Assembly (NCBI RefSeq): GCF_964194155.1
Contig: NC_135881.1
Location: 17,236,001-17,300,000 of the forward strand
Length of the DNA: 64,000 nt
Source of the DNA: Cetorhinus maximus
Taxonomy: Eukaryota
Reading direction: 5' to 3'
The translations under genes were made by a program, and so were the position numbers. This document shows, in pieces, positions 250-25,089 of this stretch. Within the stretch, counting starts at the first letter, position 1, and each line of letters starts with the position of its first letter. A model generated the notes under the pieces. The model saw only the letters and a list, made by a program, of their open reading frames with translations, was not told the DNA's origin and ran no database searches.

Positions 250-1745
250 GGATGATTTCGAGTCCATCGCCGGCGGGGCAGCGAATGCCCTCCTGCGCCC
301 CACCCCGCCACCCCCCCCGCCACCCCACTGGGGGAATTCTGGGGGAGCCCCTCACCGAGGACGCGGGTCACCCTGTCAGAAGGGGGGGGTCCGTGAGCCG
401 CTCCTGTGCTGCCGGCCGACGACGGACCCCTTGTCTCGGACACAGAAGAAGCTCGTCGACTTCTTCTGGGACAAGTGGATGCGCCGGATCGCTGCCACGG
501 AGCTGCACCCCCACCCCCCGCATGAGGTGGGCGGTCAGGTGCTGTCCCACTGAAACCTGACCGAAAATCCATCTCCGGACCCTGCAGAGACCACCTTGAC
601 ATCGAGCCCCCTGCCCGACGGTGTGGCCCTGGCAACATGTTCCCCCTGCCGGGCCCACAGCCTCAGTTATGGCCTGCAGCTCGCGTTTGTAGGCCGGAGG
701 TTTTCTCAGTGCCTCTCTCTCTCTGAGGGAGTTGCCGGCCCTTTTACCGGGGCCTGATCGAGGCCTGGAACCTGGCTGCCTCGTGCCGGAGCTCCCTCCC
801 GCGTCTGGGAGCCGCCGCCACTCGGGGGGGTAACCACAGCTCCAGCCAGGAGGGTCCGGGACGCTGGCGTGAGCGGAGACGGGGACGTGGCAGGGGGAGC
901 AGGCCGGACGGCGCCCTTCGAACTGGCATGTCGGAAGCCCCCTCTGTGCCTTTTCGCTCGGCCTAGACCGGGAGGGGGTGGGGTTTCGGGCAGGGGCTGC
1001 TACTCCTGCTGCACACCCTCCCATCGTCCAGACATCCCCTACTGTCATCCGACAGTGGCAGGAGGGCTCTCTACATGGGAGTACCCCCCACCCTCCCCCC
1101 GGCCTTTCTATTGGGGGCTTGGCGAGGAGGTTGCTCCTGTAGTCCCGTACAAAGGCAGGTTGCAATGGTTCGCGGACTCCCAGGCTGCCTGTGTTTCCTG
1201 CGGCCCCAAGGAGTCCGCCTGCACCTAGGTTGTGGTAGCTCGCATCCCCCCCGTTTAGTTTCTCGAAGGAGTTACCCCTCAAGTTCTTGCTGCACTTCAG
1301 CCCCACGTGCCTAATCCTTGGTCACCCGGTGGGGAGGGGAGGGGAGGGGAGTGGGGGGGAGAAATGCAGTGACGGGGGTGGGGGGAGAACCTCCTCCTCA
1401 ACCTCCTCCCGGGCCTGGCCAAGTTGGCCATTAACCGGTCCAGGCAGCAGGTGGTTGAGGGCATTGTCCGGCCTGAGCGCCTGCCCCTCTCTCACGGCTA
1501 CGTTGGCGGCCGGGTGCCCTTAGAGAGGGGGCATGCGGTGTCCACTGGCACGCTTGAGGCCTCCGGTGGCTGGTGGGCACCACAGGGGCTGTGTGCATCA
1601 TAGGCCCCCAGAGTCACGTGGTAACTCGATTTAAGTTTCATTTAAGGTTCTGGTCACAGGGTCCCTTTAAGAGACCGCTCCCATAAATTGTTTAGTTTGG
1701 TTTCTTAATTTGTTATTTGTCCCTTTTTAATTCAAAAAATAAAAA
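250..1745 (+). mobile_element. Decayed Tx1-clade (L1 group) non-LTR retrotransposon, copy 1, internally deleted ORF2 3' half
   Basis: Fragments QKKLVDFFWDK (443-478), EVGGQVL, zinc-knuckle remnant DSQAACVSCGPKES (1175-1217), C-terminal WAPQGL (1574-1591), then an AT-rich 3'UTR ending in AAAAATAAAAAGAAG; many frameshifts. Confidence 0.8.
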
Positions 1746-3214
1746 GAAGCTCATCGACTTCTGCTGGGACCAAAAGGCTGAGGTACTGTATGTCCCGCCT
1801 GAGGAGGGCTGCTGTGCCCTCGCACCCAAGTGCTGGCTTTCCAGCTTCAGACCCCGTGGCCATACCTCCGCACCGAGCCCCCTCTCCGATGGTGAGGCCC
1901 CGGTGACGTATTTCACCCGCCGGGCCGCGCACGGTCTCAGTTATGACCTCGCAGCTCCTGTTTATAGAGCTGAGGGGGTCTCGGTGCCTCTCGAAGGAGT
2001 TGCCCGTCTGTCTTTTACTAGGAGCTGATCAAACGTGCGGAACGGTTACTCCGCCCCGGATCTCCCTTCCATCGGGAGCGGCGGCTGCTGTCGGAGAGCC
2101 GCCAGTCAGGAACCCGCGCCTCCACCAGCACAGGTTCGGGTGTCTGGGTTGGGGGGGTGGGGGGGGTGGTGGTGGGGGGAGCGGAGGACTCGGGCTGCTG
2201 GGTGGAAGAGGAGGGGGCCCGGAGGACACCGCGTGAACCGGCCTGTCGTGCATCGTTTGATGTCCAGCTCGTGGCCAAAGCCATCCACAGGCCTTAAAAC
2301 GGTGATGCCCGCCCGGCCCCGGGCTGGACCCGAGGTGTCCAGGTTCCCGAGCGTGCGGGTGGACTCCCGTCCGAACTGAAGCCCGTCCAGGCGGGATCGC
2401 GCAACGGCCCCGGGTCCCGAAACCTCCCTCGGGCCCCGCAATTTCAGCCCACCGTGCGGAGGTTCCCTCCGCGCCTTTTCCCTCTCTGCATGGGAGGGGT
2501 TCCCTGTCCCGGCTGCTGCCTCACACCCCTCGGCTCCTCACCCTCGCCAGCCGTCCGGACAGGGTACGGTGGTTCCGTCCTGCCCGCCGGCAGTGGCAGG
2601 GGTCCCCAGCAGAGAGCTCTGTACGTGGGGAGCCCTCTCCCTTCCCGTGGCCGTGCACCGGTAGCTTACGATGGGTTACGGACTCTCAGGCCACCTGTAT
2701 TTTCTGCAGCCTCCAGGAGTCCGTGTTCCATGTTTATGTCGATTGTACAAGGCTGCAGCCCCTTTCGGACGATTTGACGATTGAGGCTGCTCCTCAATTT
2801 CTGGTTGCACCTCAGCCCCCCCAACCCCCGGGCTCCTCTGTTTCTCGGCCGCCTGGGGCAGGGCGGAGGGCATCCTGGTCACTCTGCTCCTGGGCCTGGC
2901 CAAGTCCGGGTCCGGGCAGTGGGCAGTTGAGGGGGTCGTCCAGCCCAACTGTCTGCCTCTCTTCTGCGGCCACGTTCACGCCCGTGTGTCCCTGGAGAGG
3001 GACCACGCAACGTCTGCTGGTACACTTGACCCATGACATGTGGGCACCGCAGGGGCTGGAGACAATAATCAGCCCCGGAAATAACACTTTCATTTAGTTT
3101 CCGTAAGTTTCCTTTAAGATTTTTTCACTTTGTTACAGTGCCCCTTTAAGGGGCTATTTCCTTGTTAATTAGCCTGTTAGTTTATTTGATTGGCCTATTG
3201 TTCTATTAAAAGAG
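1744..3214 (+). mobile_element. Decayed Tx1-clade retrotransposon, copy 2 (ORF2 3' half plus 3'UTR)
   Basis: KKLIDFCWDQKAEVLYVPPEEG at 1744; CCHC knuckle DSQATCIFCSLQESVFHVYVDCTRLQPL (~2680-2765); terminus WAPQGLETIISPGNNTFI* (3041-3097); 3'UTR similar to copy 1, ending TTAAAAGAG. Confidence 0.82.
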
Positions 3215-3284
3215 TGTCACGGGGTTACATGGGAGGCTGACCTCTGGAAGGCTACATCCTGTGAATCGAGGAGTGAGGAGGTTT

Positions 3285-4955
3285 TGTTTTTAATTCATTC
3301 GCGGTGTGTGGATGTCGCTGGCTGGGTCAGCATTTATTGCCCATCCCTAGTTGCCCTTGAGAAGGTGGTGGTGAGCTGCCTTCTTGAACCGCTGCAGTCC
3401 ATGTAGTGTAGGTACTCCCACAGTGCTGTTACGAAGCGAGTTCCAGGATTTTGATCCAGCGACAGTGAAGGAATGGCGATATATTTCCAAGTCAGGATGG
3501 TGATACTTGGAGGGGAACTTCCAGGTGGTGGTGTTCCCATCTATCTGCTGCCCTTGTCCTTCTAGATGGTAGTGGTCATGGATTGGAAGGTGCTGTCGAA
3601 GGAGCCATGGTGAATTCCTGCAGTGCATCTTGTAAATGGTACACACTGCTGCTACTGTGCGTCCGTGGTGGAGGGAGTGAATGTTTGTGGGTGTGTCAAT
3701 CAAGCGGGCTGCTTTGTCCTCAACGATGTCCAGCTTCTTGAGTGTTGTGGGAGCTGCACTCATCCAGGCAAGTGGGGAGTATTCCATCACACTCCGGACT
3801 TGTGCCTTGTAGATGGTGGTCAGGCTATGGGGAGTCAGAAGGTGAGTTACTTGTCGCATGATTTCTAGCCTCTGACCTGCTCTTGTAGCCACAGTATTTA
3901 TATGGCTAGTCCAGTTCAGTTTCTGGTCAATGGTAACCCCCAGGTTGTTGATAGTGGGGGATTCAGTGATGGTAATGCCATTGAATGTCAAGGGATGATG
4001 GTTGGATTCTCTTGTTGGAGATGGTCATTGCCTGACACTTGTGTGGCGCGAATGTTACTTGTCACTTGTCATCCCAAGCCTGGATATTGTTCAGGTCTTG
4101 ATGCATTTGGACATGGACTGCTTCAGTATCTGAGGAGTCTCGAATTGTGCTGAACATTGTGCAATCATCAGCGAACATCCCCACTTCTGACCTTATGATG
4201 GAAGGAAGGTCATTGATGAAGCAGCTGAAGATGGTTGGGCTGAATACACAACCCTGAGGACCTCCTGCAGTGATGTCCTGGAGCTGAGATGAGTGACCTC
4301 CAACGACCACAACCATCTTCCTTTGTGCTCGGTATGACTCCAGCAGAGAGTTTTACCCCTGATTCCCATTGACTCCAGTTTTGCTAGGGCTCCTTGATGC
4401 CACACTCGGTCAAATGCAGCCTTGGTGTCAAGGGCAGTCACTCTCACCTCACCTCGGGAGTTCAGCTCTTTTGTCCATGTTTGAACCAAGGCTGTAATGA
4501 GATCAGGAGCTGAGTGGCCCTGGGCGGAACACAAACTGGGCGTCAGTGAGCAGGTTATTGCAAATCAAGTGCTGCTTGATAGCACTGTTAATGACCCCTT
4601 CCATTACTTTACTGATGATCGAGAGTAGACTGATGGGGCAGTAACTGGCCGGGTTGGATTTGTCCTGCTTTTTATGATCAGGACATACCTGGTCAATTTC
4701 CCACAAACCCAGGTTGATGCCAGTGTTGTAACTGTTCTGGAACAGGTTGGCTAGGGGCATGGCAGGCTCTGGAGCACAAGTCTTCAGTACTGTTGCTGGA
4801 ATATTGTCAGGGCCCATAGCCTTTGAAGTATCCAGTGCCTTCAGCCGTTTCTTGATATCACGTGGAGTAAATCGAATTGACTGAAGACTGGCATCTGTGA
4901 TAGGGATATTTGTGGAGCCTCCTCCTCCAGTGAGTTGTTTGTCCACCACCGTTCA
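3285..4955 (-). mobile_element. 5'-truncated CR1/L2-group LINE, RT domain to 3' tail (frameshifted)
   Basis: ORF pieces KAMGPDNIP, KQDKSNPASYCPISLLSIISKVME, ALDTKAAFDRVWH, PQGCVFSPTIFSCFIND, MFADDCT, YKAQVRSVMEY, QRFKKAAHHHLLKGN*, followed by the family tail GGATGGGCAATAAATGCT. Confidence 0.93.
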
Positions 4956-5029
4956 TGGCTGGAAGGTTTGGGAGGATTGGCTCTGCAACTCCATCAACTA
5001 AGTTAGGAATTCAAGCAACCAACATCCTG

Positions 5030-5395
5030 CGAATTGGAGGCCCCGCCCTCCCGAACTGGAGCCCCTGCCCTCCGGAACTGGAGCCCCTGTCCTCCCGAAC
5101 TGGAGCCCCCGCCCTCCCGAACTGGAGCCCCCGCCCTCCCGAACTGGAGCCCCCGCCCTCCCGAACCGGAGCCCCCGCCCTCCGAACCGGAGCCCCCACC
5201 CTCCCGAACCGGAGCCCCCGCCCTCCCGAACCGGAGCCCCCGCCCTCCCGAACCGGAGCCCCCGCCCTCCCGAATTGGAGCCCCCGCCCTCCGAATTGGA
5301 GCCCCCGCCCCCTGAATTGGAGACCCCGCCCCCTGAATTGGAGACCCCGCCTTCCCGAATTGGAGCCCCCGCCCCCCGAATTGGAGCCCCTGCCT
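5030..5395. repeat. GC-rich minisatellite, 21-22-bp unit GAA(C/T)(T/C)GGAGCCCCCGCCCTCCC
   Basis: About 16-17 directly visible tandem units. Confidence 0.97.
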
Positions 5396-5869
5396 ACACT
5401 AAATGAAAAGATATACTGATTCTGAGCTAGAGCAAACTCACTGTCTGGAATCCTCCATTCTGGGGTCTAAGTTCAGTGGGGGGGTGGCGGGTAAACGGGA
5501 GTGATTCCTGCTGGAGGCTGGGATGGTCTTTCACCACTCAGCCCATCTGCATCGGCGAGGAACTTGCCGAATCTCACGGTGGGGACGGACAGGAAGTCAC
5601 CGTCCCTGCTGTAACCTCACGGGGATCGAAGGTTACGGGGAGAAGGCGGGAGAATGGGGTTGAGAAACTTATCAGCCATGATTGAATGGCGGAGCAGACT
5701 CGATGGGCCGATTGGCCTAATTTCTGCTCCTATGTCTTCTGGTCTTATGGTGCAGACGCCATAGTTAAAGGTCGCCTGGGCAGCCATTCACCCGCTGCAA
5801 TCCAGGAGCATCAGCCAGGAGCTGTCTTGCAAGGCTGCACCAAAGAGACTTTCCCCAGGGTGGACAACG

Positions 5870-7735
5870 TGCAAACACACGGTTCACTGAAGCCTCCCTG
5901 GAGATTCTGCTCCAGGTCGTCCAGCAGCGGCGGCAGGGGCTGTTTCTCCAGGATGGCGGCAGGAGGCTCTTCCACCTGGACCATGGCGGCCTGGACGGAG
6001 GTTGCCGTGGCGATCGCGCCAGTGGGGGCCAGCATAGGAATGCCCAGCAGTGTCGCAAGAGGATGAACAATCTGCTGTGCCCTGCCAGAGTAAAGGGCAC
6101 CATCTACTCATTGCAGACCGGCACTCGTAAGGGCGTTGGGCAGTGGAAGTGTGAGAGTGCACAGGGATAGCAGACTGCAGTCACCAGCAGATGGGACACA
6201 TGCACTGACTGTACCAGCCACATCGCGCTCCCAATCTTCGATCAGAGCCAGGACGTCCTGTTTGTTAATCACTTACTGGGGAGGACTCAGCAGCTGCCAA
6301 ATGTATGCACGCTCCTAAACTGCTCATGCATCCATAGGGATGACACTCAATCCTTCGCTGTCTGTCTGCAGGACAGAAACACCCACGATAAGTGGAGCAG
6401 GCCAAAACCAAAGGCGGCATTCCAGGCATTCGAATCCTGAGATAACCGGGAAGGAGCAAGACCTGTGCATTGTGCTGAAGGCGAGATAGGGCTCTCCTGA
6501 GAAGCCAATGAGGATGCTTCCAGTCTGCAGCTGTCAGATGCTCCTACAATAACATATTTCTTTATTTAAGGAGCCTGCTCAGGCATCCACTAAATCTTTC
6601 ATTTTCCCCACTCCAGGTACCAGCAAGAAAAGGGGGAGGCCCACAATGGAGACCAGCCACAGCTCCATCTCCATCTCCACCTTTGAGGAGGATGCTTCAG
6701 AAGCCTCAGAGGGTGGACCGTCACGGAGTTCACCTGCACCCTCCACCAGCACAGATACATTCACCTTAGTGAGTGCACGGTCTAGAGTAAGCTCAGGATT
6801 ACAGTCTGGTGAGCACATGACAGACACGGGTCTACAGCTGGTGAAGGAAGTCACTTCGAGGTCTCTGACACGCGGAGGACTGCTGGAGACCAGACCCCTG
6901 CTCAGCCCCATGCAGATGACGAGCCTCTGGACTGTTGGAGATGCAGAGACAGGCAAGGAAACATAAGGCAGAGATAGAACCATAGAACACTACAGCACAG
7001 AAAACAGGCCATTCGGCTCTTCTAGTCTGTGCCGAAATATTATTCCACTAGTTCCAATGACCTGCACCTAGTCCAGATGCTCGAGGCCATGCACAGACTG
7101 GATCAAAGGCTGGAGGAGCCCATCCACGTTCTGTCTGTTGTCGTGCTTCCAGCATGTGAGTGCTTGGCTGCCTCCATGGGAAGGGTGGCGGCCATCTTGT
7201 GGAGACCCAGCTCCAGCAGAAGACGCTGTGGCTGCCGGGCCTGCACTCCGTCGTTCTAGCCATCGGTGCAGTGCAGCCGTGGCTAGGTGAGAAGGGGACG
7301 AGGCACCTCGAACTCCCTCCGGGTGCCCCTTCTCCCTCCGGATGTCAACATGGTGCCATGGGGCACCCACAGGGAGGAGGACTGCCAGCCAGTCACCTGG
7401 GGGGGGGGGGGCTTCATTCCCAGACACTCCAACGGTGCCTGACACTCCACCCACCCTCCCTCCGCCCGCGACCTCATCGCCTTCAGCAGGTCAGGCACCT
7501 GTACCTGAACAGGAAACCCCGAGCAGGCCGGGTGCTCGAGATCTCAGGGCCACCAGAGGATGCACGCCAAAGTCATCACTACCAAACAGAGTATAACTGT
7601 CAACAAGCTGCCTCTACCTGTGGATGTCGAGGCTGCACTTAGACCTAATGGTAGGCAAAGATTAAGAAGTTTGAAGCCACACAGGTGGCACTGGTGTACA
7701 AACATCGCATATAATTTTGGCACTTGTAAATAAAT
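5870..7735 (+). pseudogene. Harbinger Myb/SANT-like DNA-binding protein gene (3 exons), left arm, decayed
   Basis: Exon 1 RFTEASLEILLQVVQQRRQGLF..AWTEVAVAI..NAQQCRKRMNNLL with donor after 6089; exon 2 acceptor CTGCAG at 6371; exon 3 acceptor CTCCAG at 6616 (acidic Ser/Pro-rich region); AATAAA near 7729; frameshifts and a CR1 tail inserted at ~6970-7070. Confidence 0.85.
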
Positions 7736-8365
7736 GTTCACTTGCGTTGTTTGGAAGGTTCCTGGATTCCATCTCCCTGCTAGTTCCCATTTGTGCATGA
7801 TTAAGCGCTGGCTATCATTTGAGAGTATGTGACCTGGGCATGCATCATGTAAGGTAGTACTTGCAGCTCACCACATCCTGACCTCTGAAAATGTAGCAGT
7901 AAGGTCACTGCATCTCCTGCTGTTGCCCTGATGCAGGATTTGAGCGGAATCAAGGAGTACTCAAGGAGGGGGGGTTAAAACTGCTCTGTGAGTGGCGAGG
8001 AACACTGTAGATGCAATGTTCAGGATTGAAAGAGTGAAGCTCCACACGGCCTGATGAACAGCAGAAAACCAGAGACTTCCCTACATGTTTTGAGAAAGCC
8101 GTGGTTAGCATAAACATACGCATTTGGAGCAGGAGTAGGCCACTCGGCCCCTCGTCCCTGCTCCACCGTTCAATAAGATCATGTCTGATCTGATTGTAAC
8201 CTCCCACCTACCCCCGATAACCTTTCAATAACTGAGCCTCACAGGCCACAGCCTCCACCATGGGTAGAGCAAGGAGGCAGGTCCTGACTCCAACCCGGCC
8301 GCAATAGGAACTGAATTAGCACCAATCTGAACCACACCAGTACATCCAGCCAACTCAGCCAACTG

Positions 8366-9615
8366 ACATGTCCAATCTTTAATGGCCTTCCTTGCTGATT
8401 TGTCACTTTGAGCTAACATGCAGGTGAAGGCTGCAAATAAGGAGGCAAAGAGCAAGTTAGCTTTGACTGTTAGAGAGATTTTGTGCAGGATTTAAGAGGT
8501 GTGTGTGCAGTTGACTGAAGCCTTTATCAGACCTCACATGGAGATTTGTTTGGCCTGCTCATCTCCTTATCAAGGGTTGCAGTAGACCTCGCATAAAGGG
8601 TTTGCAACCAAAGTGCATTGGGCCTCATTGAAGGACCAGCGTCTTAGTCCACGAGGTGAGAGAGAGTAGAATAGGCCTGTGTGCTGGACTGTGCTGGGAA
8701 CTATGAGGTTATCCATGTGAAGTAACAGCAGCTCTAACAGGGCTGTGCAGGGTCCATGTAGAAAAGATGTTTACCTCGGCTAGGGTGTCGAGAATGACTG
8801 ATCACGGTCTCACACTAACACTAAGGCCATCTCAGAGTGCTTGCTACTCAGCAACCCATAGTGCAGGTGAGGCACTCTCAGGGAATGGATTCAAAAGTAA
8901 CCCTGAAACTCTTCAGCATGATAAAGATGTCATGGGATATGGGTTTACTGTGGGCGAATGGCAATTGGGGGGCAGGAACACGATCCTCCCTTATCAATCT
9001 GCATGGAGGAGCGATCTCGAGGGGCCAAATGGTGTTCTCATGCTGCTCCTGACTCTGCGCCCATCTATCTGGTTCTGCCTGTAAGAGCTCTCTGCCAGGT
9101 CTGCCCCCCCATTGGGAGCAGAGGGTGACATGAGCACATCCCTGCTGAGGTAAGATTTGACATTACTTCCAAGTTGCCATGCACATGGACTTTGTGAGGA
9201 GACAGGAAAAATCTCAATACTGCATACAGGTGCCCGAGGTCATGGGAGAATGGAGTGCTTTGCAGGTTCTAAAGCACACATTTAGCGCTAGGGCTCTGTA
9301 TTTGAGCACAGTTTGGCGCATGCAAAGGATCAACCCACCAGCAGGGCAAATATTAAGTAGTGCAATTTAATTCAGCTATCATAAATCAAGGCACATCAGA
9401 GAAAAATAATGCCTGGAACCAAAAAAGGTGCTGGGGCCTTCCGGCCAGCTGAGGTTAGAAAACCAAAATGTTCAACAAATGTGGCAGCAGCTCACTCTGC
9501 CTGGAATCTGGTAGCTATCAGATTGGAACAGGCCCGTCTACCACATCATTCCCCTGCTAAGGCCTCTTCATGTGGCTTGGTGACATCCTGGCCCTCGTCA
9601 GCTCCATTCCCTTCA
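8366..9615. repeat. Left copy of ~1.25-kb near-identical inverted repeat (partner 12318-13562)
   Basis: Base-by-base reverse complement; 8 differences counted in a 255-bp sample (9361-9615); the same spurious ORFs appear on opposite strands (8767+/13165-, 9179+/12754-). Confidence 0.97.
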
Positions 9616-10260
9616 CTGTCCTCATCGTTGGGAAAGACATCTCAGCCCTTCATGGATCCTCAGCCAAGACATCCTTTGTAGTGCAAGGCTGGGCAGGGTA
9701 CAGCAGGGAACGCTGATCTGAGAGACTCTCTGTGGTGAGTATTAGAGTGCCCTCCTGAACCGTTGAAACGTCATAACCTCATCTTCGGGGGGCCTGTCGT
9801 CTGCTCAGTGATGGAGCTAGTGGAGGCATGTGTGGCACCATACCTCTCCTCAGCAGCACCCCGCAGAGAGCAAATTGGCATCATCAGCCAGGATTTCTGG
9901 GGGTATCCCTTATCCCCAAGGAGCCAGCCCTGCTACCCCTGAGGTACTTCAAAATGCTGTAGCACCTGGGAGTGGGTCAGGATGTAGATCTCATAAGAGC
10001 TCCCTAGAAACTGAGCACAAACATTCAAAATTTGTCTTCTGTGATCACATATCAGCTACATGTTCCAAGAGTGGGAACCTTTCCTATTGATGAATATGAC
10101 TGGCTGTTGCCAGAGAACTCTCAAGGCCACGTGTGCAGTCAGTATCATCTTGCGCTTGTGTGGCACCTGAGACTGCTGCAAATCCCAACGCTTTTGCAGT
10201 CTGACTTTTGAGATCCAGTAGGAGTTGGACAAACTGGTGCGCTCTCCCGAACGGCGTAGG
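9515..10260 (-). pseudogene. HARBI1-type Harbinger DDE transposase remnant, left arm
   Basis: ALGFAAVSG..DTDCT, HVALRV..FINRKGSHSWNM*LICDHRRQILNVCAQFLGSSYEIYIL, WLLGDKGYPQKSWLMMP, GSGGAL*YSPQRVS; N-terminal HTH region missing where a LINE fragment lies. Confidence 0.9.
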
Positions 10261-10261
10261 G

Positions 10262-10700
10262 GGAGGGGGGGGGTGGGTACATGGTAATCTGCAGGAGGTT
10301 TCCTTGCCCATGTTTGACCTGATGCCATGAGACTTCATTGGATCCAGAATCGATGTTGAGGACTCCCAGGGCAACTCCCTCTTGACAGTATACCACTATG
10401 CTGCCACCTCTGCTGGGCCTGTCCTGCCGGTGGGACAGGACATACCCTGGTGGTGTTGGTGGTGTCTGGGACATTATCTGTAAGGTATGATTCCGTGAGA
10501 ATGACCATGTCAGGCTGTTGCTTGACTAGTCTGTGAGACGGCTCTCCCAATTTTGGCACTAGCCCCCTGATGTTAGTAAGGAGGACTTTTCAGGGTCGAC
10601 AGGGCTGAGTTTGCCGTTGTCATTTCTGCTGCCTATGTTGATGCCGGGTGGTCCATCCGGTTTCACTCCTTTCTAGCAGTTTGATACAACTGAGATGGGC
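10262..10700 (-). mobile_element. LINE fragment (APE endonuclease N-terminus), probably the same family as 3285-4955
   Basis: PKLGEPSHRLVKQQPDMVILTESYLTDNVPD, PGYVLSHRQDRPSRGGSIVVY, VSWHQVKHGQGNLLQITMYPP. Confidence 0.85.
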
Positions 10701-11297
10701 ACTCCTCAGTTGCGTTCTCCTCTCTATGGTGAAGCCCACATTGCAGCAAGTTTGTTCCCAACTCGTGGGTCTCACAGCATTGAGATCCCAGCAAAGTGTG
10801 GAGCTGCTGTTCATTCTGTACGATTTGCCATCTGCTACAGTCAGATGAAGGGAGAGAGGGAGGTGGAACACCTGCAAGGGCATGAAACTCGCGACTTCAA
10901 ACCTCCATCCTCTCGTGTGAATGGTCATGGCTGACGAGAGATTGTGCAGTTAGTCTTTCTATGCTGCCAAGACAATGGTCTCTCTATAGAGTCTCAAGGG
11001 TGTTGGAGGCAAGCAGAATAGTGTCAGAGGATGGATTCTTGCGCATGGCTTTCATCACGCTGTCCAAAGAGCAAAGTATCCATACACATTCATGTATGAT
11101 TGGGAGGAACATCCATCTCTGGTCCTTCAGGATGTCCTTTACCTGGAAGTGATGGGGAGGGGCTGCCATGTCTAAACAGAGGCCAGGTGAAGGACTTGGC
11201 ACTTGCCTGTTGGCTTTGAGATGGAGGAAAACCTGTAAAGGACATGCTCCCTTAATGTATCATTTCAATTTGTTCACAGATTCACTGAGACATTGAT

Positions 11298-12430
11298 GAT
11301 GCAGGCTGCAGGCAACCCTGCCTTCCTATTGGCTCTCATCCAGATGTGGAGAAGGAGGGCCCATCGCTGGTTGGCACAGGGCCAGGAGAGCAACAGCCTG
11401 AGCAGCAGGACCTCTATAAGGTCAAGGTGCTGGTGAACAGGGTCCAATGCAATGGGGAGCATTGACCTGACCACAGGTGTATTGCAGGTGGTGCTCTTAT
11501 ATACAACTGAGTGAAAAGCAATGACAGAGTCACCTTCAGATGTCCCAGAACGTGGTTACTTACATCTTCCAGCTTCTCCGTGATGACTTGTGGCCACAAA
11601 GACTTGGATGGAATCACATGCCAGTGGCATTAAAGGTCATCACCACCTTGAACTTCTTTGCCAGTGGCTCCTTCCAGGGCTCCACTGCAGACATGTGCAG
11701 CATCTCCCAGTCAGCAACTGAGAGGTGACAGCTGCCCTATTCAGGAGAGCACACCAATTTGTCTAATTCTGACTGGATCCCGAAAGCCAGGCCACAAGAG
11801 CATTGGGATTTGTAGCAAATTCAGGTTTCCTGTAAGTGCAAGGGGCCACTGACTATAGGCATGTGGCCTTGAGAGTACCCTGGCAACAGCCAGTCACAAT
11901 TCCTCAATAGAAATTGAACATGTAGCTGATATGTGATCACAGAAAGCAAATCTTGCATGTTTGTGCTCAGTTCCCAGGAAGCTCTCACGACACCTACATT
12001 CTGACCCACTCCCAGGTGCCACAGGTTTTTTAAGAGCTTTGGTGATTATAGGGCTAGCTCCTTGGGGACTGGGCTAATGACACCAGTTCGCCATCTGCAG
12101 AGTGCTACTGAGCAGAGGTACAATGACGCTCATGCCTCCACAAGGTCCAGGATTGAGCAGATGATGGGCCTCCTAGCAGACCACTCAGGTGGGGCTCTCC
12201 AATACTCACCACAGGGTATGTCCTGGATGATCGGTGTCTGCTACGCCCTGCCACAGTGGGATATCTTGGCTGAGGGAGACATGGGGGACCGAGATGTCTC
12301 CTCCATCACGGGGGACGTTGAAGGGAATGGAGCTGACGACGGCCAGGATGTCACCAAGCCACATGCAGAGGCCTTAGCAGGGGAATGATGTGGTAGACGG
12401 GCCTGTTCCAATCTGATAGCTACCAGATTC
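11298..12430 (+). pseudogene. HARBI1-type Harbinger DDE transposase, right arm, near full-length but disrupted
   Basis: MPVALKVITTLNFFASGSFQGSTADMCSISQSA, GFL*VQGATDYRHVALRVP, LICDHRKQILHVCAQFPGSSHDTYIL, LMTPVRH..EQRYNDAHASTRSRIEQMMGLL, DHSGGALQYSP; stops, deletions and frameshifts. Confidence 0.93.
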
Positions 12431-13562
12431 CAGGCAGAGTGAGCTGCTGCCACATTTGTTGAACATTTTGGTTTTCTATCCTTAGCTGGCCGGAAGGCCC
12501 CAGCATCTTTTTGGTTCCAGGCATTATTTTTCTTTGATGTGCCTTGATTCATGATAGCTGAATTAAATTGCACTACTTAACATCTGCCCTGCTGGTGGGT
12601 TGATGTTTTGCATGCGCCAAACTGTGCTCAAATACAGAGTCCTAGCGCTAAATGTGCGCATTAGAACCTGCAAAGCACTCCATTCTCCCATGACCTCGGG
12701 CACCTGTACGTAGTATTGAGATTTTTCCCGTCTCCTCACAAAGTCCATGTGCATGGCAACTTGGAAGTAATGTCAAATCTTACCTCAGCAGGGATGTGCT
12801 CATGTCACCCTCTGCTCCCAATGGGGGGGCAGACCTGGCAGAGAGCTCTTACAGGCAGAACCACATAGATGGGCGCAGAGTCAGGAGCAGCATGAGAACA
12901 CCATTTGGCCCCTCGAGATCGCTCCTCCATGCAGACTGATAAGGGAGGATCGTGTTCCTGCCCCCCAATTGCCATTTGCCCACAGTAAACCCATATCCCA
13001 TGACATCTTTATCATGCTGAAGAGTTCAGGGTTACTTTTAAATCCACTCCCTGAGAGTGCCTCACCTGCACTATGGGTTGCTGAGTAGCAAGCACTCTGA
13101 GATGGCCTTAGTGTTAGTGTGAGACCGTGATCAGTCATTCTTGACACCCTAGCCGAGGTAAACATCTTTTCTACATGGACCCTGCACAGCCCTGTTAGAG
13201 CTGCTGATACTTCACATGGATAACCTCATAGTTCCCAGCACGGTCCAGCACACAGGCCTATTCTACTCTCTCTCACCTCATGGACTAAGACGGTGGTAAG
13301 ACCCTTCAATGAGGCCCAATGCACTTTGGTTGCAAACCCTTTATGCGAGGTCTACTGCAACCCTTGATAAGGAGATGAGCAGGCCAAACAAATCTCCGTG
13401 TGAGGTCTGATAAAGGCTTCAGTCAACTGCACACACACCTCTTAAATCCTGCACAAAATCCCTCTAGCAGTCAAAGCTCTTTGCCTCCTTATTTGTAGCC
13501 TTCACCTGCATGTTAGCTCAAAGTGACAAATCAACAAGGAAGGCCATTAACGATTGGACATG
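12318..13562. repeat. Right copy of near-identical inverted repeat (partner 8366-9615)
   Basis: Direct reverse-complement match to 8366-9615. Confidence 0.97.
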
Positions 13563-14136
13563 CCCACCACATCTTTCTCCAAAAGTATAGGGAAACCTCT
13601 GGTTTTCTACTGTTAATAAGTGTAGAGCTTCACTCTTTCAACCCTGAAACTGTATCTAGTGTTCCTTGTCACTCACAATGCATTTTTAGCTCCTACAGCA
13701 CCCTTTGCATCCACCCACATCTCACATCAGGGAAAAAGCAGCAGGAGATGCAATGACCTCACTGACACATTTTCAGAGCTTAGAACATGGTGAGCTGCAA
13801 GTAATAGCTTGCATGCCCAGGCCGCATACTCACAAATGATAGTCAGTGCTTAATCATGCACATGTACGATTATTGTTGATAATGTGAGGGAAGTGAATCT
13901 ATAAGAGTTCATTATCGGTCACTAATGGGGGTCCAAATTCCACATCCCTCATTGAAGCAACGAGCAGCAAGATGAAATCCAGGACACTTCCAAGTAGTGC
14001 AAGTGAACATAAATTTACAAATGTCAGAAGTATATACAATGGTTGTACACATCCAAGCCATCTGTGTGGCTTCAAAACTTCTGAATCTTTTGTTACCTAC
14101 CTCCACGTCTAGGTGCAGCCCCGACATCCACAGCGG

Positions 14137-14512
14137 ATGGGGAGATGGTGGCATTGTGGCGATGTCACTGGGCTAGTACTCCAGTAGGCCCAGGCTAATG
14201 CTCTGAGGACATGGGTACAAATCCCACCAGGGCAGCTGGTGGAATTTTAATTCAGTTCATAAATCTGGAATATAAAGATAGTCGTAGTAATGAAACTATC
14301 ATCGATTGTCATAAAAACCCGTCTGGTTCACTAATTTGCTGAGGGAACAAAACCTCCCATCCTTTCCCAGTCCGGCCTATATGTGATTGCGGACCCCACA
14401 GCATTGTGGCTGACTCTTAACTGCCTCTGTTCAAGGGCAATTAGGGATGGGCAACAAATGCTGGATTTGCCAGTGGCACCCTCATCCCATGAAAGGGTAA
14501 ATTTTTTAAAAG
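14137..14512 (+). mobile_element. tRNA-derived SINE whose 3' tail matches the CR1/L2-group LINE
   Basis: A/B-box-like head (TGGCATTGTGG ... GGTACAAATCC) and tail AAGGGCAATTAGGGATGGGCAACAAATGCTGG; related copies at 40790-41150(-), 55205-55512(+), 58190-58900(-), 63455-63640(+). Confidence 0.85.
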
Positions 14513-16047
14513 GTGGGGGTGGCCTGCTAACGCTATGACCTGTTGACTGTGATGGCTTTGGCAGGCGTCCTCTGGTAGGCCGAGGCTGAGGGGGACACTG
14601 GCATGCTGAGGGTCCTTTGCTTACGCACAGGCGCACCTTCCTTAGCCTGACCTGCTGGAAGCGATGGGATCGCTGGCGGGGGGTTGGGGGAGGAGGGTGT
14701 TAGGCTTCCTGGGTTGAAGGCCCCTGCCCCACCCAGGTGACTGGCTGGCACTCCTTCTTGTGGGTGCCTGATGGCATCTCCCTGACTCCCTGAGGAGGAA
14801 AGGCACCTGGAGGGGGGTCAAGGTGCCTCATTCCCCCCTCTCGCCTAAACGCTGCTGCACTGCACCCACGGCGAGAGCGACGAATTGCAGGCCCGAAAGC
14901 ATATCCAAGGCAGCTGCCGCTCTTTCCATGGAGGCAGCCAAGTGCCCACGTGCCGGAGCCACGATAGCAGGCAGGTGCCTGACTCTCCATCTCCAACAGG
15001 TCTCTCAGGGCCGAATCCAGGTCCTCCTCATCTGCGTGGAGCTGAGCAGGGGCCTGGTCTCCAGCAGTCCTCTGTGTGTCCGAGACCTCGGCTGTCACTG
15101 CCTCCGCCAGCTGTGGGCCTATGTCAGCGATGTGCCCATCAGACTGAAACCCCCAGCTTACTCTGGACCATTGAGGTGAATGTACCGGTGCTGGTGGAGG
15201 GTGCAGGTGAACTCCGTGATGATGCACCCTCTGAGGCTTTTGAGGCATCCTCCTCAAAAGGTGGGATTGGGGGTGGGGCTGGGGGTGTGGCTGGTCAGGG
15301 TCGCTGGCCTCTCTTGTTCCTTGCTGGTACCTGGAACGGAGAAGAGAAAGGTTTAGTGAATGAGTAAGCTGGCTCCTTCATCAAATACACCTCTCAGTGG
15401 GCGGGGCTGACAGCTGCAGACCGGAGGCATCCTCACTGGCTTCCTGGGGGAATCCTATCTCGCCCTCAGCCCAGGCACGATCCTGCTCCTCCCAGGCTCT
15501 CTCCGCAGCCTGCTCCTCACGCAGGGCGAGGACTCAATGACCCGGCATTCCACCTCCTGTCTGGAAGTGCTCCCACTTGTTATGGGCGTTCTCCTCCTTC
15601 AGGAAGACAGAAGAATCAATGGTCACGCCATGAGCAGCTCAGGAGCATGCGCGCCTATGTCAGCTGCTGAGTCCTCTCCTGTAAGAGATTAAGAAACCAG
15701 TCATCCTGCAACTGATAGGAGATTAAGAGCGTGAAGTGGCTGGTACACATTCAGTGCACGTGTCTCATCTGCTGGTGAGTATGCAACCCAAACTCCTGCC
15801 TGACATCCCTGTGCACTCACACACTTAGACTGCCTGATGCCCTTATGAGAGTGTCAGTTTCCAGTGAACAGACGGTGCACTTACCCTGACGGAGTGCAGC
15901 AGAAACGCATCCTCTTCTGACACCGCTGCGCACCTCTGTGCTGGACCCCACGGGCACTAACCTCTGCTGCGACCTCTGTCCAGACCGTGGTCAGCTGGGA
16001 GAGAGTCCTGCAGCCATCCCTGGGAAACTGCACCTCTCGCCTTTCAT

Positions 16048-17575
16048 AATTAGGAGGAGTAGGCCACTCGGCCCCTCAAACTTGCTCCACCATTCAGTAA
16101 GGTCATGGCTGATCTGATTGTAATCTCGACTCCACATACCCACCTCCATCCCAGATTCCTGGCCCCTTTGTTGGTCAAGAATCTATCTAACTCAGCCTTA
16201 CAAATACGAATTGACCCTTCTTTCGCCATTCTCTGGGTAAGAGAGTTCCAAAGACTCAACTCTCAGAAAAAAAATTTCCCCTCATCTCGGTCTTATTTCT
16301 AAACTGTGTCCCTTAGTTCTAGTCTTCTCCCACAAGGGGAAACATCCTTTCAGCACCCAGCCTGTCAAGTCCCCTCTGGATCTTATATGTTTCAATGAGT
16401 TCACATCTCATTCTTCTAAGCTCCAATGGGTACAGACCCAACCTGCCCAACTTTTCCTCGTAAGATAACTCCCCCATCCCAGGTATCGGTCACATGAACC
16501 TTCTCTTAACTGCTTCCTAACGCATTTATATCCCTTCTTAAATAAGGAGACCAAAACAGTGCACGTGGTCTCACCAAGGCCCTGTACAACTGTAGTAAAA
16601 CATCTCTGCTTTTATATTCCATTCCTGTTGCAATAAACAACATTCCATTTGCCTTCCCTAATCATTTGCTGTTCCTGCATACTAACTTTTCCTGATTCAT
16701 GTACCAGGACACCCAGATCCCTCTGTACCTCAGAGTTCCCGCAGTCTCTCTCCATTTAAATAATGTGCTGTTTTTTCTATTCTTCCTGCCAAAGTGGACA
16801 AGTTCACTTTTTCCCGTACTATACTCCATCTGCCAAATTTTTTTGTCCACTCACTTAACCTATCTATGTCCCTGTGCAGGCTCCTTATGTCCTCCTCACA
16901 ATTTACTTTCCCACCTATCCTGGTGTCATCGGCAAATTTAGCAACCATACCTACTGTCCCTTAATCCAAGTCATTGATAAAAAATTGTAATTGGTGGAGA
17001 CCTCAGCACTGATCCCTGTGGCGCTCCACTTGTCACATCTTGTCATCACCGAAAGAGAAACATTTATCCCTCCTCGGTGCTTTCTGTTAGCTAACTAATC
17101 CACTATCCATGCTAATATGTTACCCACTTAACCGTGAGCTCTTATCTTGTGTAGTAACCTTTGATGCGGCACCTTGTCAAATGCCTTCTGGAATCTAAGT
17201 GCACCACATCTGCAGGTTCCCCTTTATACACATTGTTTGTTATTTCCTCAAAGAACTCTACTAAATTAGCCAAACCTGATTTCCTTTTCACAAAGGCACG
17301 TTGGCTCTGCCTGATTATATTGAGATTTTCTAAGGGCCCCGCTATAACCTCCTTAATAACAGATTCCAGCATTTTCCCTATGACAGAGGTTAAACTGACT
17401 GGCCTCCAGTTTCCTGTTTTCTGTCTCCCTCCTTTCATGAATAGAGGAGTCACATTCACTATCTTCCAATCTAATAGGACCTTTCTGAATCTAGGAAATG
17501 TTGGAAAATTAAAATCAGTGTGTATACCAGTTCAGCAGTCAGTTCTTTAAAGACCCTAGGATGGATTTTTTTGGA
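16048..17575 (-). mobile_element. 5'-truncated CR1 LINE inserted in right-arm Myb exon 1
   Basis: HPRVFKE, NVTPLFMKGGRQKTGNWRPVSLTSVIGKMLES, KFADDTRIGG, SLWNSLTQR and a typical CR1 3' tail. Confidence 0.93.
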
Positions 17576-17984
17576 CAGCCCGGGGGATAGTTGGCAGGGA
17601 GGCTCCACTGGACTGTGGGGCCACACGTTGCTGTTTTCTCTGCAGCTTACTGGTTGATGCAGCAAACGGTTCTCCTGGCCTGCAGTGAGTGAACGGCTAT
17701 CCGGGTACAGTTTAAATGTGGCGCACAGGCTTTCGAGCCCATGAGCTAATGGCAGGGGCGGCAACTTCCCGCCCGCCACGAGATTTGCTGTCGGCTGTCC
17801 TGCCTGAGGGGAACTCACTTGCAGTTCCATACCTGCCACCAAACCCAGACTTCACAGCGGATGATGATTCCACCTGTTGTCTGTGAGCACACGGAGGCAT
17901 GCATTCGGAACTGGAGCCCACTCTCTCACCTGGAGCACACACACCAAATTAGCACGTGCACACTGAAGTAGAGCGCAAAAGGCG

Positions 17985-20900
17985 CACACTCGGGGTTAGA
18001 GCGCACGCTCGGGGTTAAAACGCACACTCGGGGTTAGAGCGCACACTCGGGGTTAGAGCGCACACTCGGGGTTAGAGCGCACACTCGGGGTTAGAGTGCA
18101 CACTGAGCTCGAGCGCACACTCTGAAATCAAGTGCACACACTGAGATAGAGTGCACAAAACAAAATAATGTACACACTTTGAACTGCAGCACAAGCTAAA
18201 TTGAAGCCCACACACAAGTACAGCACGCACACACTGAAATAGAGCGCACACACTGAATAGAGCACACACACTGAAGTAGAGCACACACACTGAAGTAGAA
18301 TGCACACACTGAATAGAGCGCACACACTGAAGTAGAGCACACACACTGAAGTAGAGCACACACACTGAAGTAGAGCGCACACACTGAAGTAGAGCGCACA
18401 CACTGAAGTAGAGCGCACACACTGAAGTAGAGCGCACACACTGAAGTAGAGCGCACACACTGAAGTAGAGCGCACACACTGAAGTAGAGCACACACACTG
18501 AAGTAGAGCGCACACACTGAATAGAGCGCACACATTGAAGTAGAGCGCACACACTGAAGTAGAGCGCACACACTGAAGTAGAGCACACACACTGAAGTAG
18601 AGTGCACACACTGAATAGAGCGCACACACTGAAGTAGAGCGCACACACTGAAATATAGCGCACACACTGAATAGAGCGCACACATTGAAGTAGAGCGCAC
18701 ACACTGAAATAGAGCGCACACACTGAGTAGAGCGCACACACTGAAATAGAGCGCACACACTGAAATAGAGTGCACACATTGAAGTAGAGCGCACACACTG
18801 AAATAGAGCGCACACACTGAATAGAGCGCACACACTGAAGTAGAGCGCACACACTGAAGTAGAGCGCACACACTGAAATAGAGCACACACACTGAGTAGA
18901 GCGCGCACACTGAAATAGAGTGCACACACTGAGTAGAGCACACACACTGAAGTAGAGCGCACACACTGAAGTAGAATGCACACACTGAAGTAGAGCGCAC
19001 ACACTGAAGTAGAGCGCACACACTGAATAGAGCACACACACTGAATAGAGCGCACACACTGAAGTAGAGCGCACACACTGAAGTAGAGCGCACACACTGA
19101 ATAGAGCGCACACACTGAAGTAATGCGCTCACACTGAAGTAGAGCACACACACTGAAGTAGAGCACACACACTGAAGTGGAGCGGACACACTGAAGTAGA
19201 ATGCACACACTGAAGTAGAGCGCACACACTGAATAGAGCACACACACTGAAGTAGAGCGCACACACTGAAGTCGAGCGCACACACTGAAGTAGGGCGCAC
19301 ACACTGAATAGAGTGCACACACTGAAGTAGAGCGCACACACTGAAGTAGAGCGCACACATTGAAGTAGAGCGCACACACTGAATAGAGCACACACACTGA
19401 ATAGAGCGCACACACTGAAATAGAGCGCACACACTAAAGTAGAGCGCACACACTGAAGTAGGGCGCACACACTGAATAGAGCGCACACACTGAAGTAGAG
19501 CGCACACACTGAAGTAGAGCGCACACACTGAATAGAGCGCACACACTGAAGTAATGCGCACACACTGAAGTAGAGCGCACACACTGAAGTAGAGCACACA
19601 CACTGAAGTGGAGCGGACACACTGAAGTAGAATGCACACACTGAAGTAGAGCGCACACACTGAATAGAGCACACACACTGAATAGAGCGCACACACTGAA
19701 GTAGAGCGCACACACTGAAGTAGAGCGCACACACTGAATAGAGCGCACACACTAAAGTAGAGCGCACACACTGAAGTAGGGCGCACACACTGAATAGAGC
19801 GCACACACTGAAGTAGAGCGCACACACTGAAGTAGAGCGCACACACTGAATAGAGCGCACACACTGAAGTAATGCGCACACACTGAAGTAGAGCGCACAC
19901 ACTGAAGTAGAGCACACACACTGAAGTGGAGCGGACACACTGAAGTAGAATGCACACACTGAAGTAGAGCGCACACACTGAATAGAGCACACACACTGAA
20001 TAGAGCGCACACACTGAAGTAGAGCGCACACACTGAAGTAGAGCGCACACACTGAATAGAGCGCACACACTGAAGTAATGCGCACACACTGAAGTAGAGC
20101 ACACACACTGAAGTAGAGCACACACACTGAAGTGGAGCGGACACACTGAAGTAGAATGCACACACTGAAGTAGAGCGCACACACTGAATAGAGCACACAC
20201 ACTGAAGTAGAGCGCACACACTGAAGTCGAGCGCACACACTGAAGTCGAGCGCACACACTGAAGTAGGGCGCACACACTGAATAGAGTGCACACACTGAA
20301 GTAGAGCGCACACACTGAAGTAATGCGCACACACTGAAGTAGAGCGCACACACTGAATAGAGCGCACACACTGAAGTAGGGCGCACACACTGCAGTAGGG
20401 CGCACACACTGAATAGAGCGCACACAGTGAAGTAATGCGCACACACTAAAGTAGAGCGCACACACTGAAGTAGGGCGCACACACTGAATAGAGCGCACAC
20501 ACTGAATAGAGCACACACACTGAAGTAGAGCGCACACACTGAAGTAGAGCGCACACACTGAAGTAGAGCGCACACACTGAAGTAGAGCGCGCACACTGAA
20601 TAGAGCGCACACACTGAATAGAGCGCACACACTGAAGTAGGGCGCACACACTGCAGTAGAGCGCACACACTGAATAGAGCACACACACTGAATAGAGCGC
20701 AAACACTGAAGTAGAGCGCACACACTGAATAGAGCACACACACTGAAATAGAGCGCACACACTGAATAGAGCGCACACACTGAAGTACAGCCCATCACAC
20801 TGAAGTAGGGCGCACACACTGAATAGAGCGCACACACTGAATAGAGCGCCCACACTGAATAGAGCGCACACACTGAAATAGAGCACACACACTGAATAGA

Positions 20901-21895
20901 GCACACACACTGAATAGAGCGCACACACTGAAGTAGAGCGCACGTACTGAATAGAGCGCACACACTGAATAGAGCGCACACACTGAAGTGGAGTGCACAC
21001 ACTGAATAGAGCGCACACACTGAATAGAGCACACACACTGAAGTAGAGCGCACACACTGAAGTCGAGCGCACACACTGAATAGAGCGCACACACTGAATA
21101 GAGCGCACACACTGAAGTAGAGCGCACACACTGAAGTGGAGCGCACACACTGAATAGAGCGCACACACTGAATAGAGCGCCCACACTGAATAGAGCGCAC
21201 ACACTGAATAGAGCGCACACACTGAAGTGGAGCGCACACACTGAATAGAGCGCACACACTGAATAGAGCGCACACACTGAATAGAGTGCACACACTGAAT
21301 AGAGCGCACACACTGAATAGAGCGCACACACTGAATAGAGCGCACACACTGAATAGAGCACACACACTGAAGTAGAGCGCACACACTGAAGTGGAGCGCA
21401 CACACTGAATAGAGCGCACACACTGAAATAGAGCACACACACTGAATAGAGCGCACACACTGAAGTGGAGTGCACACATTGAATAGAGCGCACACACTGA
21501 ATAGAGCGCACACACTAAAGTAGGGCGCACACACTGAAGTGGAGCGCACACACTGAAGTAGAGCGCACACACTGAATAGAGCACACACACTGAATAGAGC
21601 GCACACACTGAATAGAGCACGCACACTGAATAGAGCGCACACACTGAATAGAGCGCACACACTGAATAGAGCGCACACACTGAATAGAGCGCACACACTG
21701 AATAGAGCGCGCACACTGAATAGAACGCGCACACTGAATAGAGTGCACACACTGAATTGAGCGCACACACTGAATAGAGCGCACACACTGAATAGAGCAT
21801 GCACACTGAATAGAGCGCACACACTGAATAGAGCGCACACACTCAAGGAGAATGCACACTGTGAGCTAGAGTGCACACACTGAAATCAAGTGCAC
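17985..21895. repeat. 3.9-kb minisatellite, 19-bp CACACACTGAAGTAGAGCG and 18-bp CACACACTGAATAGAGCG units
   Basis: About 200 directly visible units; starts with a 19-bp CACACTCGGGGTTAGAGCG sub-array (17985-18100); degenerate continuation at 24390-24515. Confidence 0.99.
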
Positions 21896-21959
21896 AGAAT
21901 AAAATGGTGAACTAGATCACACACTGAATTACAACACGCATGATGGGGAGTGCACTCAG

Positions 21960-24388: not shown

Positions 24389-25089
24389 ACACACCAAATT
24401 AGAGCGAGCGCGCACTCCGAGTTGGAGCGCGCACTCTGAGCTGGAGCGCGCACTCCGTGTTGGAGAGCCCAAACTGAAATGGAATGCACACATTGAACTG
24501 GACTGTACACTGGTGTAAAACATAAACTGAAAAATAAATTGGTTATATGTATTTTTGAAAATTTTAATTTTCCTAATACTTCACATCTATTAAATCCTCC
24601 ACTTGTCTCAAACCTGGAGTGACATTCTGAAATGAATTGGCAGCAATGAAGATGGTGATGTGATTCAATCACTAAACAAGCTTGGTAAACGCCAGAAATA
24701 CAACTGTCAGGTCAACATCAGACATGTCCCTTTTGCTGCTGAGTGCGCTCCAGGCCAGTGTAACAATCTTTTAAATGCCACAGCCTTGGCAATTAAATCT
24801 GTCCATACATAGTAAGGCCATTTAATTTCCAAAGGCTCCTGTTATTTACAGAAACTTACTCTCCCTGCTCTACAAATGTCTCTAAGGTGACCAAAGAGCA
24901 CTATTAAACTGTAAAAACCTATCGCAGCACTTGCACAAGACTGATTTCTGAAACAAAATTCCTTCTAGCTACAATACGATATATTGATGAACACTGGTCA
25001 GATTCTGGAGCAGGTGAGGGAACAGTATTTGAGAGTCATGCTACGATATTGATAGTGCTTAGTGATGTTTTACCTTCTGAATCAATGTA

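Follow-up and report, generated by a model that had tools for sequence, protein, structure and literature searches.

Elements of the PIF/Harbinger type (PHIS superfamily) are DNA transposons which, in the available text of PMC4482050 and PMC9179366, combine a DDE_Tnp_4 transposase with a Myb/SANT gene, are bounded by short terminal inverted repeats (TIRs) starting with G, and generate a 3-bp target duplication; the part of PMC9179366 dealing with cartilaginous fish states that no Harbinger was found in the elephant shark, and calls for a check of other such species. Dispersed copies of a repeat may become more alike through non-allelic gene conversion, for which a range of around 10 kb is given for Alu elements in the accessible sections of PMC6598467 and PMC8230782. 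Human duplicates have a mean conversion tract of 250 bp and escape conversion as they diverge, according to the portion of 10.1101/135152 available, whilst homologous repair favours near templates on the same chromosome, in the excerpted text of PMC3924818. Here we describe a locus in the 3.99 Gb genome of Cetorhinus maximus at which two copies of a Harbinger-type family lie in inverted orientation. It falls in a 64,000 nt stretch of DNA (C3:17,236,001-17,300,000; NC_135881.1), referred to as the window, from the first base of which positions are counted. The initial annotation proposed a palindromic 'double Harbinger' that might form one composite transposon. The pair appears instead to be an ordinary decayed dimer, a mobile composite family not being supported, and its arms seem to have exchanged sequence long after they were inserted.

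Each arm is a decayed copy, truncated on its inner side, of an ordinary high-copy family of the Harbinger type. In searches of the genome for similar sequences, 40 candidates were scored each time, and statements below that something is single or absent hold among those. The family is dispersed, with between 1151 and 11,730 first-look candidates per query and distant copies 72-80% alike among the best 40 scored. Copies lie 10-11% from the majority sequence with no subfamily structure, and a common deletion derivative joins 11608 to 17672. Among the fetched copies, 31 5' ends and 39 3' ends bear a 14-bp TIR starting with G. Once a single row with reversed ends had been dropped from the table of TIRs and flanks, 16 two-ended copies remained; their 3-bp flanks matched at all three positions in five cases, at two in another five, and at one or none in six. 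Having a DDE transposase, a Myb/SANT gene, short TIRs and a 3-bp target duplication, the family is of the PIF/Harbinger type. It departs from the description of that type in the text available in PMC4482050 and PMC9179366 in its length, a full-length copy being approximately 7.2 kb against an average of about 4.1 kb, and in its flanks, which are loosely AT-rich (commonest bases A, T, T) and not clearly TWA; the window pair, moreover, is two truncated copies rather than one element. Across 70 flanks of copies that are themselves around 10% decayed, the first position was A in 33 and T in 23, and the third T in 35 and A in 16. Target sites seem to lean towards A-N-T rather than TWA despite the presence of a Myb gene, a mix unlike the PHIS groups as set out in the part of PMC4482050 available.

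Stop-free pieces from other copies matched the expected Pfam family in all seven cases, including PF13359 (DDE_Tnp_4; E values of 1e-20 and 2e-13) and PF13873 (Myb_DNA-bind_5; 1.5e-6), and these pieces map onto both arms by tblastn; the window's own pieces give weak matches (E 0.001-0.18). Their placement bears out the gene order first proposed, namely end, Myb (+), transposase (-), spacer, transposase (+), Myb (-), end. The arms are unequal: the left copy (5443..10252, - strand) begins at position 2690 of a 7.16-kb full-length copy and covers family positions of approximately 2690-7160, lacking the transposase-side end and the first part of the transposase, whilst the right copy (10705..17875, + strand) begins at position 1330 and covers around 1330-7160, lacking the first 1.3 kb or so including the transposase-side TIR. 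Other copies of the family extend upstream of 10705, where that of the window ends. Remnants of the Myb/SANT exon were located by tblastn with pieces of other copies at 5865..6110 (+) and 15884..16051 (-). The DDE transposases, at 9492..10252 (-, the 3' end being placed from the stop of the right copy) and 11460..12442 (+, start approximate), are both broken by stop codons and frameshifts, the right one having three stops in 110 codons at 11459-11788. GT and AG dinucleotides are present at all three positions compared in both arms; to this extent the splice sites are conserved as claimed, but they are plain features of the family. The same Myb-side terminus does indeed bound both outer ends: the TIRs at 5443..5456 (+, with ACT outside it at 5440-5442) and 17862..17875 (-, with GTT at 17876-17878) each fit 11 of the 14 family TIR positions. 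A transposase-side end is likewise absent from the centre (10201-11400), where scores of 20-29 were obtained against a cut-off of 90, in agreement with the earlier observation. Nothing in the pair indicates that it has moved as a unit or that it still codes for anything.

The two arms have collinear reverse complement similarity on self-comparison (5929-10251 against 16041-11740), hence the mirror layout of the supposed 12.4-kb palindrome is real; its uniformity is not. Outside a single tract, which had gone unmentioned, the arms differ at 23.2% of 2248 aligned sites (76.8% identity). The tract itself, around 1.24 kb long and lying at 8367..9617 (-) in the left arm and 12319..13562 (+) in the right, is 97.3% identical, with 1206 of 1239 bases matching, 33 mismatches and 17 gap columns. 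Its outer edge coincides exactly with a 255-bp insertion of repeat fragments found only in the left copy (8112..8366, -), and its inner edge borders a run of 16 mismatches in 41 bases. Within it, the two arms share departures from the family majority at 79 of 1180 sites and differ at 36, against 12 shared derived and 174 differing sites out of 909 elsewhere. As the arms share decay mutations, selection is excluded and copying after decay is indicated; purifying selection is rejected as the cause of the 97% identity on these grounds, the tract standing around 9% from the majority as do other copies. An RNA gene is rejected too, since there is no Rfam match in 5000-18000. The in-register edges and shared decay mutations suggest that the tract is the mark of non-allelic gene conversion. 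Divergence from the majority is 9.0% in the tract, 12.7% and 10.9% in its right-arm flanks and 14.1% and 14.7% in its left-arm flanks, which weakly favours the right arm as the putative donor. A three-way ordering of the right arm, the left arm and the copy at 18.55 Mb was discarded, the relationship being nearly star-like once a cluster of eight sites was set aside.

The right arm has further patches in common with copies at C3 17.38, 17.89 and 18.55 Mb, which are 0.13, 0.65 and 1.3 Mb off; these are sharply bounded tracts of 94-100% identity in a background of 75-80%. They comprise two 94-100% patches within 10707..11290 (+; 17.89 Mb copy), a stretch of about 96% at 12919..13900 (+; a deletion derivative at 18.55 Mb, the terminus of which is around 75% alike) and a 94-99% patch in the Myb gene at 15180..15480 (-, edges approximate; 17.38 Mb copy). 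Pairs were compared among 95 sequences, a tract being scored where a 150-base window had at least 95% identity; a set of three C22 loci with common satellite flanks was treated as segmental duplication, and two of the three were excluded. Such tracts were present in 24 of the 33 Harbinger pairs within 3.5 Mb, in none of the 113 same-chromosome pairs beyond this distance, and in one of 2629 pairs on different chromosomes. The near pairs with tracts belong to nine clusters, on C3 (four), C9, C12, C13, C22 and C23. In a selection of 17 neighbour pairs, each pair has 0.2-4.0 kb of tract in all; the tracts are in register, with shared derived bases at roughly 6-13% of the sites within them and differences at 1.5-5%; they never reach the first 1000 or last 160 or so family positions, although few pairs cover the ends. 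Pairwise alignments within clusters revealed no common flank beyond common repeats, unlike in a segmental duplication. Windows of 88-96% identity are also in excess among neighbours (111 of 526, against 367 of 10,320 in distant pairs), which suits repeated events of different age.

The clearest cluster seen is at C12:121.0-124.3 Mb, where five separately inserted copies, spread across 3.3 Mb and in both orientations, are linked by tracts of 95-100% identity, each no longer than 1.5 kb, whilst their ends are 70-85% alike. At C9:54.1-56.6 Mb, three copies are 93-96% identical over 3-4 kb, and two have the same internal tandem expansion of about 60 bp; a structural change hence seems to have moved with the tract. 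An inverted pair 1.56 Mb apart on C22 (42.2 and 40.7 Mb) is 93-96% alike over approximately 4.6 kb, with private insertions in each copy and the Myb-side end at 71%. Copies at C19:53.7 and 52.9 Mb are 84-91% alike over around 1 kb, which may be a conversion tract of greater age. The three 91-92% copies at C22:31.0-31.2 Mb, with shared satellite flanks and a spacing of around 100 kb, represent a local segmental repeat.

What had been taken for a central spacer is not one as such: it consists of a fragment of a LINE-like high-copy repeat (10263..10698, -, 88% to other copies), which is presumably a LINE endonuclease region although Pfam found nothing in it, and of the right arm's own 5' region (10705-11740). 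Where the fragment joins the right copy, the motif CAACTG (10687-10692) is common to both repeats, constituting a 6-bp microhomology. As copies of the LINE-like repeat are closer to one another than are those of the Harbinger family, it is probably the younger of the two, and the centre therefore probably took its present form after the Harbinger burst. This fragment and a repeat at 3284-4901 are collinear in a copy at 18.54 Mb. In the window they are same-strand, collinear parts of one LINE-like family flanking a minisatellite and the left arm, and may represent either two copies or a single element that a rearrangement has divided. The deletion derivative at C3:18.548 Mb, the interior of which is 96% like the right arm over about 980 bp and the terminus 75%, borders on the 5' part of that LINE-like family, oriented as it is in the window; however, this locus was rejected as a segmental copy of the window centre, the LINE parts being 86-88% alike against 96% for the Harbinger part.

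Our best reading, which we think somewhat better than an even bet, is that neighbouring or sister insertions were followed by central deletions and by repeated local conversion. Two Harbinger-type copies, probably donor and daughter of a local hop or else near neighbours, would have landed head to head during an old burst of the family, either within an array of one minisatellite or between its arrays. The younger LINE-like element would then have come to lie between them, and deletions, one across the 6-bp microhomology, would have taken both transposase-side ends; the junctions are present in the sequence, and this order of events is the one that they suggest. Subsequently, host recombinational repair may have transferred sequence from arm to arm, as well as between the right arm and family copies within about 1.3 Mb. 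Repeated conversion most likely kept the interiors alike while the ends escaped, rather than a single jump across 23% divergence. Candidate sources of the breaks or pairing are a hotspot motif, trans-acting excision by transposase with template switching, or simply the closeness of the copies. Some evidence bears on whether the arms are sisters. Rare derived bases shared by the arms outside the tract amount to 23 of 2248 (1.0%) and are evenly spread (clustering p 0.7), against 0.46 +/- 0.15%, with a maximum of 0.81%, in 40 comparisons with distant copies; this is a weak indication of such a relation. The 22-bp minisatellite of the left flank (5030..5394, +) and the 19-bp satellite array of the right flank (17908..21930, +) have, on inspection of their units, a common GAAYTGGAGC core on the same strand, although aligning the flanks directly to each other gave a score of 49, which is not significant against a shuffled maximum of 53. 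The suggestion of a local inverted duplication or an aberrant or local transposition thus gains modest support from the rare shared bases and the similar flanking minisatellites.

Several observations weigh against repeated conversion between neighbouring or sister insertions. Subfamily profiles gave no signal for a donor or for a crossover flipping the centre, all correlations being non-significant, and the abrupt fall to background at both tract edges suits one late event equally well. The 24 pairs form just nine clusters and were co-retrieved by similarity search, which favours near-identical neighbours, so the rate among near pairs is inflated; when three copies were taken as new queries, the 40 candidates scored included no near-identical neighbour, and nine of the 33 near pairs have no tract. 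A GC-ward shift, which repeated conversion should produce, is seen in tracts (ratio 0.71 against 0.57) but is equally found outside them (0.78 against 0.64), and so cannot separate repeated from single events. Among the 32 pieces of independent sequence listed, none spans the structure or bridges the central junctions, nor does any long read span it.

A bolder proposal, which we regard as doubtful, is that the Harbinger family, unlike the surrounding LINEs, undergoes concerted evolution at megabase range, with neighbours within about 3 Mb overwriting one another's interiors in kilobase tracts at roughly 20% divergence since the element itself targets the breaks or pairing. Such targeting may involve transposase excision with template-switching gap repair, Myb-mediated pairing or a recombination-hotspot motif. 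In 62 local alignments of at least 300 bases between other repeats, only three had a 95% window, one of these being unmasked Harbinger sequence and two a uniformly young LINE family, and for the LINE nested in the right arm none of the 40 scored out of 29,056 candidates was a local partner. These results suggest that conversion is specific to Harbinger copies, bearing in mind that the control repeats were retrieved differently from the Harbinger pairs. Were the element to drive the process, the window palindrome would be its shortest-range case and the right arm a hub with four partners.

It is unlikely that the arms are two wholly independent nearby insertions, drawn closer by deletion and subject to one late conversion across around 23% divergence. 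By a rough estimate, from 1151-11,496 candidates including fragments, 0.8-83 head-to-head pairs within 10 kb would be expected by chance genome-wide, and the 23.2% divergence of the arms outside the tract is that of either arm from distant copies (20-24%). The sharp tract edges are also as one event would leave them. However, independence does not account for rare shared bases being in excess throughout the length of the arm, and a single late event sits poorly with the graded identities in neighbour pairs and with the rarity of conversion near 80% identity, as reported in the text available from PMC3924818.

An inverted duplication made by the host through fold-back or template switching soon after insertion, later stabilised by asymmetric central deletion and then subject to conversion, seems distinctly unlikely. 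It would explain why both outer ends have the same terminus, why both flanks resemble one minisatellite on one strand, and the slight sister signal. Yet on self-comparison the mirror similarity goes no further than the TIRs, the flanks beyond them not mirroring each other, which points to ends defined by a transposase, and shared derived bases also occur at rates of 2-4% outside tracts in neighbour pairs that are megabases apart.

The least tenable of the biological explanations is the fold-back or composite element itself, in which a head-to-head dimer was inserted once, or moved, by means of the two outward Myb-side TIRs; we consider this very improbable. The outward TIRs are present, and the outer flanks ACT and GTT, which match at one of three positions and are two transitions apart, decide nothing because six of the 16 ordinary two-ended copies also match at no more than one. 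Exact TIR-TIR junctions do occur in the genome, with three found, one of them with a 3-bp spacer, as against none for a reversed control pattern, but none joins two transposase-side ends of the Harbinger family. At C3:111,779,189-111,779,219, two different elements with TIRs of this type have just a 3-bp spacer between them, the hallmark of a double insertion at one target site. The search that was to reveal a mobile palindromic family through its central junction found neither inner junction at a second locus among the 40 candidates scored for each. Of 84 fetched loci with family sequence inspected for inverted pairs, the window alone has two long inverted copies, one other having an inverted piece of 204 bp. 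When either flank was used to look for a paralogous empty site, the matches, apart from the window's own array, were dispersed satellite at 65-81%. The centre, moreover, is younger than the family and joined by deletion, and arms that differ by 23% outside one tract are not evenly alike. Hence the claim that the structure moved as a unit is not supported and is best dropped.

Parts of 8100-13800 are present in 19 sequencing runs, and the contigs of four were compared over 5400-12300, the evidence being taken from the 32 pieces listed of around 190,000. Organism C, which may be the sample from which the assembly was made, has pieces free of differences at 7170-7738, 7717-8149 and 11359-11943 and, crossing the inner tract edge, at 9574-9924. 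Organisms A and B have pieces of both arms at approximately 3-8% difference, one of which passes 8367 by 45 bases, and within the tract their pieces have three differences and depths of 50, 109 and 78, against 19-25, 43-55 and 31-41 in neighbouring pieces. Given pieces of both arms and a roughly doubled depth in the tract, the arms and the near-identical tract appear to exist in relatives. That the 97% tract is an artefact of assembly or polishing is barely credible, even with no long read and a best-matching run that may be the assembly's own sample, as the two copies of the tract are separated by 33 substitutions and 17 gap columns, a contig with no differences crosses the left arm's inner edge at 9574-9924, one from another organism passes the outer edge by 45 bases, and similar tracts occur on six chromosomes.

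Other repeats are nested within the arms. The left copy has a young short repeat (5621..5750) that is 95% identical to copies elsewhere, and the right copy a short high-copy repeat (14140..14510) and a LINE bearing a reverse transcriptase (16046..17570, -), which we take to be a CR1 element. Related minisatellite arrays with units of 19-22 bp abound in the region, at 5030-5394, 17908-21930 and 24406-24520, at C3:16.78-16.88 Mb and at a further locus (L044), and a tandem array of about 8.7 kb lies just upstream of the window.

If old and distant copies do swap kilobase tracts, then the search for homology in this genome reaches well past the 10 kb or so given for Alu, and tolerates or outlasts far more divergence. 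Within such clusters, divergence would give biased dates for repeats, and inversions and deletions of megabase size could readily arise between the copies. The star-like copies, which number in the thousands, also offer a natural ruler, in a genome that is large and rich in repeats, for how conversion varies with distance, orientation and divergence. Searches of the open-access literature, with subscription journals outside its coverage, listed no paper on a double Harbinger element, and none on conversion at megabase range among copies of a DNA transposon.

The likeness of the pair to composite transposons of bacteria, and to KolobokP (PMC9587614), reportedly a composite-like eukaryotic DNA transposon, is superficial: two units bound a centre with their ends outward, but the window pair has neither multiple copies, a conserved centre nor coding capacity, and its arms are 23% diverged outside one tract. 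It also resembles the inverted dimers formed by double insertion or local hopping of P elements and Rover (in the text available of PMC5932611), with which it has in common a single family, inverted orientation, one locus and junctions eroded by deletion. Unlike in those dimers, the diagnostic target duplication at the junction is gone; as it was lost with both inner ends, double insertion cannot be shown here. The tracts resemble those left by non-allelic gene conversion between transposable elements such as Alu and long terminal repeats (in the sections available of PMC6598467 and PMC8230782), being mosaic, of high identity, between separate insertions and favoured by proximity, but they differ from those of Alu in joining DNA-transposon copies up to 3.3 Mb apart, over 0.2-4 kb and in a background of 75-80%. 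Whilst the process itself is already known, the novelty would be in its scale, kilobase tracts spanning megabases between transposons diverged by 20% exceeding the Alu range of around 10 kb.

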